Source: a virus (taxonomy: Duplodnaviria > Heunggongvirae > Uroviricota > Caudoviricetes). From it: 18,320 nt of DNA. Below the pieces are notes generated by a model. The model did no database searches. It was not told the origin of the DNA and saw nothing but the letters and a program-made list of their open reading frames with translations. A program made the position numbers and the translations under genes. The stretch lies in IMG/VR virus record IMGVR_UViG_2728369556_000002, one strand, 5' to 3'. The first letter of the stretch is position 1. The number at the start of each line of letters is the position of its first letter. Below, in pieces: positions 15,139 through 18,320 of this stretch.

Positions 15139-15354
15139 TTACTCTCCCCGTGCCGCCTTACGACGGTCCTCTCTGATTTTGAAATACAGGTTAGTCAGAT
15201 ATGTCAGCAGCCCAAACAGCAGACTCCCCAGCACGCCTATTGCCGCCCACTGAGACGGGGAAACCCTGTCCAGCAACTGCAGGAACCAGTAGCCCGTTCC
15301 CACCGCTGACGTGGTGTATGACACACCTGTTGTGATTTTTTCCATCTGGTCCAT
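15139..15354 (-). CDS. class II holin / pinholin (phage 21 S-like), dual-start
   Basis: ORF track 15139..15459. Real start is the ATG at 15354 ([10 protein letters not shown]..., 71 aa) with GGGAGA upstream. Two in-frame Met codons at positions 1 and 4. C-terminus ...[30 protein letters not shown]. Confidence 0.88.
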
Positions 15355-15850: not shown

Positions 15851-16110
15851 GGTTCTTTCCACCATCTGAAAAATAATTCTTTAAAATACCAGACATGTAA
15901 CACAGAAAAAACACAAAACCATACCTTAAATAGAAACCTGATCATCAAGCAGATATGCATGGATAAACTACAAGACGAGATATAAACCACCCTGCATTTA
16001 AATAAACAATAAACAACATCAGAAAAATAATTCTGCTCTATGGTTTATATTCAAAAATATCATTTATACTTTTCAGAACATCACCAGCAAGGCATAAACA
16101 AGGAAGCTAA

Positions 16111-16446
16111 ATGAAGTGGATTGTAATTGATACAGTTATCCAGCCATCATGCGGAATATCTTTTTCAGTCATATGGAGTAAAGTAAAATTAATAATCTGG
16201 TATCAATCGGATGCTTTCTTACCTCCTGAAAGTATATTTACACTGACTCACACAGGTATCATGCTCAATAACAAAGTGCTACCTGTAACCATTTACAACG
16301 TAGTACCATTCAATAAAACATTCTGGAATTTAATCAAAAACAGCCAGGAATGCCCTACAAATACAGATAACGTATTGAATGAATGCTTTAATAACCGTTG
16401 CATTCTGCAAATATGTCCTTATGGACTAAAACAACAAAGTCCATAA
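16111..16446 (+). CDS. orphan low-GC protein of unknown function (111 aa)
   Basis: An uninterrupted 111-codon ORF in markedly AT-rich DNA, with AAGGAAG 6 nt upstream of the ATG. On the opposite strand to the late operon. No family recognised. Confidence 0.45.
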
Positions 16447-16448
16447 GG
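16417..16448. repeat. inverted repeat, 11-bp arms with 10-nt loop, at the 3' end of the orphan ORF
   Basis: CCTTATGGACT aaaacaacaa AGTCCATAAGG; the stop codon of ORF 16111..16446 lies inside the right arm. Confidence 0.8.
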
Positions 16449-16466
16449 AGTTTACTCACATCTGAC

Positions 16467-16640
16467 AAAATCAATATAAACAGCCCCTCCGGAGAGGGGC
16501 TGGAGAGTGGCGCTATGTGCCATTGCATGGTGCCGGGTGCCTCCCGGTGAATTCAGTACCAGCACCTGAATCCGCGATTATCCCATATACCTACTCGCTG
16601 ATTACCCCTCCGCACAGGGGGATTCACCATGCGAAATTTT
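16467..16640 (-). ncRNA. candidate structured small RNA, copy A
   Basis: Minus strand shows promoter-like boxes (TTGTCT, 18 nt, TGTTAAAAA), a 5' arm GCATGGTG, internal hairpins, a 3' arm CACCATGC, then terminator AGCCCCTC-TCCG-GAGGGGCT with a U-rich tail. Paralogous to copy B. Confidence 0.3.
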
Positions 16641-16935
16641 TTAACAAACTTCCCGCCGGCCAGACAATAATCGCCAGCCTGAATTATGAGCAACGTGGCA
16701 TTTTACGGGAAAACTGTTTTCTGCAGTAAAAAGGCCCGCCGGAGCGAGCCTGGAAGGATAGCGGTCATGTGATGCCGGTTTCCCGGTAACTCAGCATCGG
16801 TATCTGAGTCAACGTTTTCTCTACTGGGTCATTTCCGATACGTTCCGCCTTCCGGCAGACTTTCATCACGTCAGAAAATATAGCACCCTGAGTAACAGGA
16901 CAGTACTCAGAATTCAGGAAACTGTGACACATCCT

Positions 16936-17110
16936 GCACAGAAAAGCCCCTCCGGAGAGGGGCTGAAGTATAGCCTAATTTCTGTCTGTCGCATGGTGCC
17001 AGGGGCCTCCCGGTAAATTCAGCCTGTCTACTGAATTTGCATGTTCTCTGGATCATACACTTTGCCAGATGCCCCGCCGCTGAGGGGGATTCACCATGCG
17101 ATGTAATTTT
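16936..17110 (-). ncRNA. candidate structured small RNA, copy B
   Basis: Same block architecture as copy A, with identical terminator hairpin and promoter-like boxes but divergent loops and linkers. Confidence 0.3.
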
Positions 17111-17302
17111 TAACAAATTCTCCGGCAGCCAGACAATCATCAAGCTGTGGAATTGTGAGGTATTTAAAAATTTCAACGGGTAACTGATACCCTGCTAATC
17201 GCCTGATGCTTTCTTTTTCAGCAACGGGAAAGCAACAACCACACACCCGCCACCAAAACACCATCAGACAGCACCGACATTATCCGGCTGCTGAAGTCCA
17301 CC

Positions 17303-17378
17303 ATCACCACCAGAAACAACAGGAGTGCAACCACAGCTGCTTAGAAGGCAATTGCTCTGCCCGGCTGAGCTAACAACG
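17303..17378 (-). pseudogene. degenerate tRNA-Arg(UCU)-like remnant
   Basis: Minus strand reads GCGTTGT TAGCTCAGCCGGGCAGAGCA ATTGC CTTCTAA GCAGC...: a tRNA-like 5' acceptor strand, D-arm and an anticodon loop with TCT, but the anticodon stem and T-arm do not pair. Confidence 0.25.
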
Positions 17379-17479
17379 CTGAATACCGATAATGGACCGC
17401 CATCGGGGACCCGCCCCCGCACCAACAACCCTGTTATCGTGTCGTCTGCTCTTCCTGATAAGCTAATGGCGGTTTGTGA

Positions 17480-17555
17480 TGGTGGCCCTTGCTGGATTTG
17501 AACCAGCGACCTGGCGATTATGAGTCGCTCGCTCTCACCACTGAGCTAAAGGGCC
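17480..17555 (-). tRNA. tRNA with anticodon CAU, closest to tRNA-Ile2 (lysidine type); tRNA-Met not excluded
   Basis: 76-nt minus-strand sequence folds by hand into a cloverleaf: 7-bp acceptor stem GGCCCTT/AAGGGCC, D-arm GCTC..GAGC, anticodon loop CTCATAA, T-arm GCTGG TTCAAAT CCAGC, encoded 3' CCA. Closely resembles E. coli ileX as I recall it. Confidence 0.88.
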
Positions 17556-17591
17556 GGGAGTAGAATAATAACGGTCCGTAATTAATTCCGC

Positions 17592-17620
17592 AATAAAAAA
17601 CCCGCTCGGCGGCGGGTTGT
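17592..17620 (-). terminator. tR'-like intrinsic terminator of the short late leader
   Basis: Minus strand reads AACCCGC CGCCGA GCGGGTT followed by TTTTATTG, about 60 nt downstream of the putative late promoter. Confidence 0.6.
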
Positions 17621-17659
17621 AGAAACTCTTCTAACGTCAGGCATAAAAAGCCCATTATT

Positions 17660-17698
17660 ATGACGAATTTACCACAGATTCCGGAAAAATCAACCTTG
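17660..17698 (-). promoter_or_regulatory. late promoter pR'-like with probable Q-utilisation region
   Basis: Immediately after the Q stop, minus strand has TTGATT (-35), a 16-nt spacer, TAAATT (-10), then a second -10-like CATAAT in the initial transcribed region, as in lambdoid pause-dependent Q loading sites. Confidence 0.5.
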
Positions 17699-18247
17699 TT
17701 ACCTAGTTACCTTTTTTAACTGCCGCTCAGCCCATGCTTCTTCAATATCAAACCGGGTCACCAGCGCATCATAGAATTTCTTAACTGTTTTTTCCCATGA
17801 CGCGCGTGTTATCTGGTTTGTCACCTCGCATATAGCATTAAATGTCTCCGTTGATGGTAGTCTTTCATAGCCACGACCACCACAACGCTGGCAGTCTCTG
17901 ATAACAGGCATACCACGTTTTACCGACTCTTCACGATGAATGGCGACACCACGCCCACGGCAATCCTTACAGGCGGTGGAAACCTCACCCTTTCCGCCAC
18001 ACTCCGGACAGGCAACTTTTACCACCTCCCTGACTTTTTTCCATTCTTCCCAGTAAGACGAATACACACCTTTCGTACACTTTGCCCATACCGGCGGCTT
18101 ACCATCCGGATACTGGACCTTGTTTGTAAAAACTACGCTTTCAATAAATTTTTCCCCATAGCAACAAGGGCACTGCTTTTTACTCGCTGCGCTGCGGGCA
18201 TAATCCTCAAAAGCGTACGAATGCGTATTTTCATGAAAGGAGATCAC
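17699..18247 (-). CDS. Q: late antiterminator Q (lambda Q family)
   Basis: C-terminal half aligns by eye with lambda Q (YA.DY.RSAA...C..C.G.G...C..C.G.GY...P...W...VK..YDALV...VTR). Apparent GTG start at 18247, preceded by GGAAG. Confidence 0.85.
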   Translation of the reverse strand: MISFHENTHSYAFEDYARSAASKKQCPCCYGEKFIESVVFTNKVQYPDGKPPVWAKCTKGVYSSYWEEWKKVREVVKVACPECGGKGEVSTACKDCRGRGVAIHREESVKRGMPVIRDCQRCGGRGYERLPSTETFNAICEVTNQITRASWEKTVKKFYDALVTRFDIEEAWAERQLKKVTR

Positions 18248-18320
18248 TCAATAACTTCCATCGAGATCGGGTAATAACATTTGAACAGATCGCTGAATAA
18301 CATCGATGGAGATCACTTTT

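Follow-up and report, generated by a model that had tools for sequence, protein, structure and literature searches.

The gap between the Q antiterminator gene and the lysis genes of this prophage most probably carries three tandem small RNA (sRNA) genes of the STnc100 family, two canonical and one diverged, which share one orientation, occupy the "moron" site between Q/PR' and lysis, and work by the mechanism proposed below. The window, by which we mean the whole stretch of 18,320 nt of Caudoviricetes DNA that was analysed (IMG/VR record IMGVR_UViG_2728369556_000002), provides the observations on which this reading is built, namely family membership, a covarying four-helix core, terminators, a conserved extended -10 element, the lack of a coding signal and the genomic context.

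Family identity of the repeated segments

An earlier note on this DNA, made without database searches, had described two segments with shared blocks (16479-16675 and 16941-17140, here called copies A and B), and a repeat search of 15900-17700 bears this out. A 20-nt palindromic hairpin, agcccctccggagaggggct, lies at 16482-16501 in copy A and at 16945-16964 in copy B, and three further blocks are 91% identical (32 nt, gcatggtgcc...aattcag), 90% identical (30 nt, cccc.ccgc..agggggattcaccatgcga) and 83% identical (35 nt, tttttaacaaa...gccagacaat) between the two copies. From copy A to copy B the blocks are spaced 466-469 nt start-to-start, and the spacers between them are unrelated. The repeat is far above chance expectation, as each segment is a full-length covariance-model match with an E-value of about 1e-30.

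An Rfam scan of the whole window at the gathering threshold returned three matches, one to a tRNA and two to RF02076, "Gammaproteobacterial sRNA STnc100", for which the gathering score is 47 bits:

16472..16660, minus strand: STnc100 copy A as delimited by Rfam (132.5 bits, E 2e-29, model positions 1-206 of 206)
16936..17129, minus strand: STnc100 copy B as delimited by Rfam (138 bits, E 7.6e-31, model positions 1-206 of 206)

The start of the RF02076 model (~30 positions) represents the promoter including the -10 region, not RNA. STnc100 is all that ARAGORN and Rfam found within 16467-17140, with no tRNA and no other Rfam family. Readings of the repeats as tRNA, REP or IS sequences were ruled out, the sole tRNA call of these programs lying at 17480-17555.

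The earlier note knew of no RNA family that matches; both copies belong to STnc100 from end to end, and an Rfam family that explains the blocks is what the note itself had named as grounds against its proposal. The claim of novelty therefore falls, while the biological reading is borne out. Judged by their sequence, copies A and B are real sRNA genes of the already described STnc100 family, correctly recognised but not new, and the label "Gammaproteobacterial sRNA STnc100" is already found in a GenBank record of an Stx2 phage (LC710661). The note's view that each copy is a minus-strand small RNA gene running from promoter to terminator agrees with full-length membership of RF02076, a family whose members are transcribed and Hfq-bound (PMC4104026, PMC7873438, PMC5331693, PMC8550237).

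STnc100 RNAs are multicopy sRNAs of lambdoid prophages, and in EDL933 11 copies have RNA-seq reads, with STnc100_4 seen on a Northern blot (PMC5331693). Tree et al. (2014) described Hfq-crosslinked sRNAs between Q and the lysis genes in eight Sakai prophages, where they typically form convergent pairs, such as EcOnc27 and the anti-sRNA AsxR 3' of stx2B (PMC4104026). EcOnc27 (sRNA103 in EDL933), the Stx2-phage member of STnc100, is supported by Northern blot and Hfq-CRAC (reviewed in PMC7873438; PMC4104026), and its overexpression raised fimZ and espA by a mechanism described as unclear (PMC7873438). Paganini et al. (2025) noted that the Infernal/Bakta prediction of STnc100 overlaps EcOnc27, with HUS-predictive variants inside it (PMC12711010), and a study of OMVs placed an STnc100 copy 75 nt 3' of stx2 (PMC12370729). 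In Salmonella LT2, the promoters of the multicopy STnc100 served as an example of RpoD/RpoN binding in ChIP-exo (PMC10794520). In EPEC, PasD1 and PasD2 are abundant sRNAs seen on Northern blots, with Hfq-dependent stability and many RIL-seq partners (Pearl Mizrahi et al. 2021, PMC8550237), and Zhu, Shabalina and Storz have proposed a common origin and structural homology of PasD and STnc100 (bioRxiv 10.64898/2026.05.13.724894). STnc100 is thus already catalogued and experimentally supported: it is in Rfam, is labelled by Bakta, and is tied to Hfq in EHEC and, via PasD, in EPEC.

Scoring these relatives on the RF02076 model agrees with the published picture. The sRNA downstream of stx2 in phage 933W reaches 208 bits and starts 75 nt past stxB2, which is the published position of EcOnc27/sRNA103 (PMC12711010, PMC12370729). 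PasD1 and PasD2, taken from NC_011601 at their published coordinates, score 37.7 and 41.4 bits, and these scores of 38-41 bits confirm the structural homology of PasD and STnc100 (bioRxiv 10.64898/2026.05.13.724894).

Predicted promoters, folds and terminators of the two copies

The elements of copies A and B discussed in this section are as follows:

16638..16667, minus strand: predicted promoter of copy A (-35 TTGTCT at 16667-16662, -10 TAAAAA at 16643-16638; read from the sequence)
16473..16632, minus strand: predicted transcript of copy A, ~160 nt (fold and terminator scan; 5' end by analogy with PasD1)
16632-16625 and 16532-16525, minus strand: arms of the copy A closing helix, 5' GCAUGGUG and 3' CACCAUGC (MFE fold)
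16502-16481, minus strand: terminator hairpin of copy A (terminator scan)
17107..17136, minus strand: predicted promoter of copy B (-35 TTGTCT at 17136-17131; TG-T-TAAAAA with the -10 at 17112-17107; read from the sequence)
16938..17099, minus strand: predicted transcript of copy B, ~162 nt (MFE fold, terminator scan, comparison with 933W)
17099-16991, minus strand: core of copy B (MFE fold)
16964-16945, minus strand: terminator hairpin of copy B (terminator scan)

As the earlier note had proposed, an element of TTGTCT, 18 nt and TG-n-TAAAAA precedes both copies at an equal distance from the G of GCAUGG. The 18-nt spacer ends in TG-T, a geometry common to copies A and B and to PasD1. Across 37 distinct upstream sequences the best-conserved stretch is TTTGTTAAAA, an extended -10 (TG-n-TAAAAA) that sits 5-7 nt before the G of GCAUGG and has TTG(T/C)CT 18 nt upstream of the -10. 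These minus-strand promoters were not listed by a simple consensus promoter scan, as the -10 hexamer TAAAAA ends in A and fails the position-6 rule; at this position the scan gave instead plus-strand TTAACA/GACAAT matches, the reverse complements of the conserved blocks. The 5' end of PasD1, estimated from RNA-seq, is the G of GCAUGGUG, and its promoter reads TTGACT, 18 nt, TAAAAA, 7 nt, G. Taken together with the conserved promoter, this end predicts transcripts from ~16632 to 16473 for copy A and from ~17099 to 16938 for copy B, and we infer that both RNAs start at the same G of GCAUGGUG.

Folding both copies, a check that the note had suggested, recovers the architecture of the family: the MFE folds of copies A and B agree with the Rfam consensus (z = -3.0 and -3.2), copy A reproducing it at -69.8 kcal/mol. 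Read from 5' to 3', this consists of an 8-bp closing helix (GCAUGGUG/CACCAUGC), a CCCCU/AGGGG hairpin, a variable insert, an 8-bp (G/A)UUCAG hairpin, a CCGGG-AGGCA-CCCGG hairpin, a mostly single-stranded linker and the terminator. The long-range closing helix postulated earlier is thus found in both MFE folds and in the Rfam consensus structure.

Covariation, the second suggested check, was assessed in an alignment of 33 variants, comprising 31 of the 44 distinct cores obtained from 120 IMG/VR prophage loci with a common 5' motif, the middle unit of the window (see below) and the PasD core. In the four-helix core 96.1% of cells are paired, compared with 36-48% when the partners are slid by 1-3 columns. 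Two-sided changes affect 9 pairs (27 cells) as against 2.6 +/- 1.1 pairs in shuffles, and the observed values are reached in 0 of 500 shuffles, a control that ignores phylogeny. The UUCAG hairpin covaries at 5 of its 8 pairs, which supports the claim that the internal AAUUCAG/CUGAAUU hairpin is under selection for structure. As the loci were selected by an exact 16-mer, the 5' arm was free to vary in the two added rows only. In the MAFFT alignment P1 and P4 of the middle unit are out of register, as are the 3' arms of PasD and of one IMG/VR locus (L225), and the counts are conservative for those rows, as they were scored as unpaired or gapped. The consensus structure, made up of the closing helix, the CCCCC/GGGG, UUCAG and CCGGG/CCCGG hairpins and the terminator, is maintained with covariation.

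A search for the 16-mer GCATGGTGAATCCCCC across 596 Gb of genome contigs gave 120 loci, nearly all of them in unrelated phyla and only a few, in Enterobacterales, being real; as chance occurrence is expected in 596 Gb, this 16-mer is uninformative on taxonomic spread.

Both copies are capped by an intrinsic-terminator-like site on the minus strand, a hairpin rich in G+C with a T-rich tail, again as described earlier, and the region as a whole has 10 terminator-like sites, compared with 1.9 +/- 1.4 in shuffles. Ahead of its terminator, copy A has the linker AAUGGCACAUAGCGCCACUCUCC and behind it an interrupted U tail, UGUUUAUAUUG; copy B has the linker GACAGACAGAAAUUAGGCUAUACUUC, similar to that of EcOnc27 in phage 933W, and the tail UUUUCUGUG. 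The U run of copy B is close to the five U's of EcOnc27, and both tails are far shorter than the eight U's of PasD, so that termination and Hfq binding could be weaker.

That the units instead encode small proteins or are dual-function RNAs, using either the AUG at RNA position 3 or the annotated ORFs, is extremely unlikely. Among 79 distinct variants of 260 nt no frame is open throughout on either strand, the core lengths fall into all three mod-3 classes, and the peptides that start at the AUG (MVNPP...) are between 11 and 38 aa long and unrelated at their C-termini. This AUG does lie in the conserved 5' arm, and hypothetical proteins are annotated over the units in phage and RefSeq records, but the ORFs that overlap the units match no Pfam family, the one over copy A is flagged in RefSeq as an incomplete pseudogene, and the longest ORFs of copies A and B are on opposite strands. 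Ribosome footprints reported on some EDL933 STnc100 copies (PMC5331693) could be taken to favour translation; the coverage varies from 0 to 3.2, which is inconsistent with coding across the family. A coding reading was rejected for its inconsistent frames and the lack of Pfam matches, and the note's description of the units as non-coding holds for the variants compared.

The middle unit and the exchange of 3' modules

The earlier note had counted two units. Copies A and B are both real, but a third, diverged unit that lies between them had been missed:

16725..16900, minus strand: third, diverged STnc100/PasD-like unit (RF02076, 30 bits, E 3e-4, permissive scan)
16885-16877, minus strand: extended -10-like TGCTATATT
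16871-16767, minus strand: core of the middle unit
16751-16732, minus strand: terminator hairpin of the middle unit (terminator scan)

With 30 bits against a gathering score of 47 it misses the curated threshold, and from its sequence it is regarded as a diverged relative of STnc100, comparable to PasD, and not as a member by that threshold. Compared with GCAUGGUG/CACCAUGC, its closing helix, ACGUGAUG/CAUCACAU, has three pairs altered on both sides in a compensatory way and a single C.A mismatch; it is the source of the three compensatory closing-helix pairs in the alignment. The UUCAG-type hairpin (P3) is kept with a further change of U-A to C-G, and the linker is GACCGCUAUCCUUCC. The unit was also considered as an allele of PasD, which was rejected as the sequence differs throughout.

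Of 5426 complete E. coli genomes, 673 have the middle unit, its alleles falling into two groups. E. coli UM146 has the same three-unit layout (136, 30 and 161 bits), and its middle allele is ~91% identical to that of the window, with differences that preserve or improve the structure: a change of C to U mends the C.A mismatch, and one of U-A to C-G in P1 is compensatory. The UM146 allele takes up the complete family architecture in its MFE fold; for the window allele, with its mismatch, the family fold lies 4 kcal/mol above the MFE. The middle unit is probably functional in at least some hosts. It is possible, though we would put it forward with some doubt, that it represents a functional and as yet unnamed third branch of an STnc100/PasD superfamily, where one scaffold serves three seed modules exchanged among phages and may have a separate role of its own. 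If that were true, the conserved scaffold might act separately as a protein-binding or decay-protecting domain.

Among the IMG/VR loci, one 3' module (linker plus terminator) was found behind up to eight different cores, and the commonest core occurs with several unrelated 3' modules, including the PasD-type linker and terminator. From such sequence comparisons the STnc100 family looks modular, with a conserved 5' scaffold and exchangeable 3' linker/terminator modules. Some canonical STnc100 cores have a PasD-type 3' end, in which GGCUGCGCAUGGCGCGGCC is followed by a U run (e.g. L148 5385-5614, L154 and L142), and recombination between core and 3' module is seen in many combinations across the IMG/VR loci L125-L244.

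The RIL-seq chimeras of PasD fall within its final ~50 nt, and its linker contains the predicted seed, UGUGAG. By analogy, the linkers of the three window RNAs, at 16524-16503 in copy A, about 16766-16752 in the middle unit and 16990-16965 in copy B, would hold their target-pairing seeds, and as these linkers are mutually unrelated, different targets are expected. A scaffold with swappable seed and terminator modules could aid the search for targets of STnc100/EcOnc27.

The reshuffling of cores and 3' modules among phages is clear, and the family is multicopy, an 851-nt query having up to 12 matching places per genome. Both facts would also suit non-functional repetitive DNA, either "linker" sequences for recombination at the boundaries of mosaic modules or decaying recent duplicates. 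We consider this very unlikely, as recent descent leaves unexplained the compensatory changes that keep the helices between diverged variants, and neither the conserved promoter geometry nor the documented transcripts and Hfq binding of the homologues are accounted for.

Prophage setting, proposed mechanism and known systems

The 851-nt region is 100% identical in chromosomal prophages of many E. coli strains and in several partial phage records, and segments of it are found in 2862 of the 5426 complete E. coli genomes and ~350 phage records, mostly of Stx-converting phages. The genes and elements around the sRNAs in the window are:

17699..18320, minus strand: Q antiterminator gene, 3' part, cut by the window end (annotation of identical DNA)
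17599-17618, minus strand: terminator-like hairpin plus T run, ~80 nt past the Q stop codon
17480-17555, minus strand: tRNA with anticodon CAT ("Met" by ARAGORN; tRNA-Ile by PGAP on identical DNA)
17218-17334, minus strand: DUF3927 ORF, 38 aa, between the tRNA region and copy B (Pfam E 6e-11)
16111-16446, plus strand: IraM-like anti-adapter protein gene, convergent with copy A (RefSeq annotation of identical DNA)
15139..15354, minus strand: class II holin gene, start of the lysis cassette, downstream of the sRNAs (annotation of identical DNA)

As annotated on 100% identical DNA (ON470612 and NZ_AP019189), the order on the minus strand is Q antiterminator, tRNA, DUF3927, the sRNAs, the IraM-like gene (on the opposite strand), DUF1737, class II holin, YdfR, lysozyme and Rz. 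The units lie in a lambdoid late region, after Q/PR' and before the lysis genes, in the same slot as in UM146, E2348/69 and 933W. This site is the "moron" insertion site downstream of PR' in lambdoid phages, and an STnc100-type sRNA behind DUF3927 seems to be a conserved combination.

The tRNA-Ile of the PGAP annotation is of the ileX/ileZ type. The stretch 17338-17567 (minus strand) matches the tRNA region of UM146 at 89% identity, over a tRNA-Ile, the first tRNA-Arg and part of the second. ARAGORN called no Arg tRNA in the window, so that argN/argO-like genes appear to have decayed here. The hairpin at 17599-17618 lies where tR' would be expected behind the PR' promoter; tR' is the site that gives the short 6S/StxS-type transcript of lambda and of Stx phages. 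A weak, sub-threshold match to Trp_leader over 17592-17698 is probably due to chance. A DUF3927 ORF also precedes PasD1 and PasD2 in E2348/69. The IraM-like gene has no Pfam match at E<=0.01, and its stop codon lies within a perfect 12-bp inverted repeat (16416-16449).

In the mechanism we favour, each unit would be transcribed in the lysogen from its own sigma-70 extended -10 promoter, giving an RNA of ~150-165 nt that runs from the G of GCAUGGUG to its own intrinsic terminator. The 5' two thirds would form a closed scaffold of several helices, target pairing would be by a seed in the single-stranded linker ahead of the terminator, and Hfq would presumably bind at the terminator and its U tail; with unrelated linkers, the three RNAs would have different targets. 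After induction, Q-modified RNA polymerase coming from PR' would pass all three terminators and reach the lysis genes, a read-through predicted from the established biology of lambda late genes. Expression, Hfq binding and function of the window copies are in this scheme carried over from their homologues.

The same layout, in which three serial terminators face transcription from PR' and a tR'-like terminator follows Q, could be understood as cis-acting parts of the late operon, where stacked terminators or stable structures insulate the morons and lysis genes or stabilise or process the late transcript, and the short RNAs are by-products. Consistent with this, the units are always found in the slot between Q and lysis (PMC4104026), and no direct target of STnc100/EcOnc27 has so far been established (PMC7873438). 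We nevertheless regard it as unlikely, as a terminator needs only its 3' hairpin, whereas here ~110 nt of upstream multi-helix structure covary and a conserved promoter element keeps a constant spacing. For insulation, lambda tR' is enough by itself, and in uninduced cells the homologues accumulate as separate RNA species that bind Hfq and have many RIL-seq partners (PMC8550237, PMC4104026).

What is added to the knowledge of STnc100 is incremental: three units in tandem, a middle one that falls below the threshold, no convergent anti-sRNA of the usual kind, and the shuffling of modules. The residual value is descriptive and consists of a non-Stx prophage with three tandem members that have unrelated 3' linkers, one of them sub-threshold. 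A 2025 study linked STnc100/EcOnc27 to HUS-predictive variants downstream of stx2 (PMC12711010).

With STnc100 RNAs, including EcOnc27/sRNA103 (Sp5/933W), the units have in common the four-helix core, the extended -10, the type of terminator and the slot after Q/PR'. The 3' linker of copy B is similar to that of 933W EcOnc27, while that of copy A differs, and the scores of copies A and B (132-138 bits) are below the 208 bits of 933W as the variable insert differs. Unlike 933W, the window prophage has no stx genes, and it carries a tandem array of three units in place of a convergent dyad.

PasD1 and PasD2 of EPEC E2348/69, homologues of EcOnc13, resemble the units in the 5' start (GCAUGGUGAAUCC...), the closing helix, the architecture of P1 and P3, the promoter geometry and the slot between DUF3927 and holin, and PasD (38-41 bits) is, like the middle unit (30 bits), below the gathering score of STnc100. 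PasD differs in that it lacks the full CCGGGAGGCACCCGG hairpin, its linker is longer and contains the seed UGUGAG, and its tail has 8 U's. This seed is in none of the three window linkers and the cores also differ, so the units are not near-identical to PasD.

The anti-sRNAs AsxR and AgvB share the moron site with the units, and in 933W AsxR lies directly 3' of, and convergent to, the STnc100 copy. An AsxR/AgvB partner accompanies STnc100-type sRNAs in 933W and at many IMG/VR loci (compared locus L246, 933W, 896-948). In the window, 15900-17700 gave no match to AsxR (RF02703) or AgvB (RF02702) even at E<=1, in a scan where the control, AsxR of 933W, scored 88 bits. Where this partner would lie, the window has the IraM-like gene and further STnc100-type units: copy A has the IraM-like gene as its convergent neighbour, and next to copy B and the middle unit lie other STnc100-type units.
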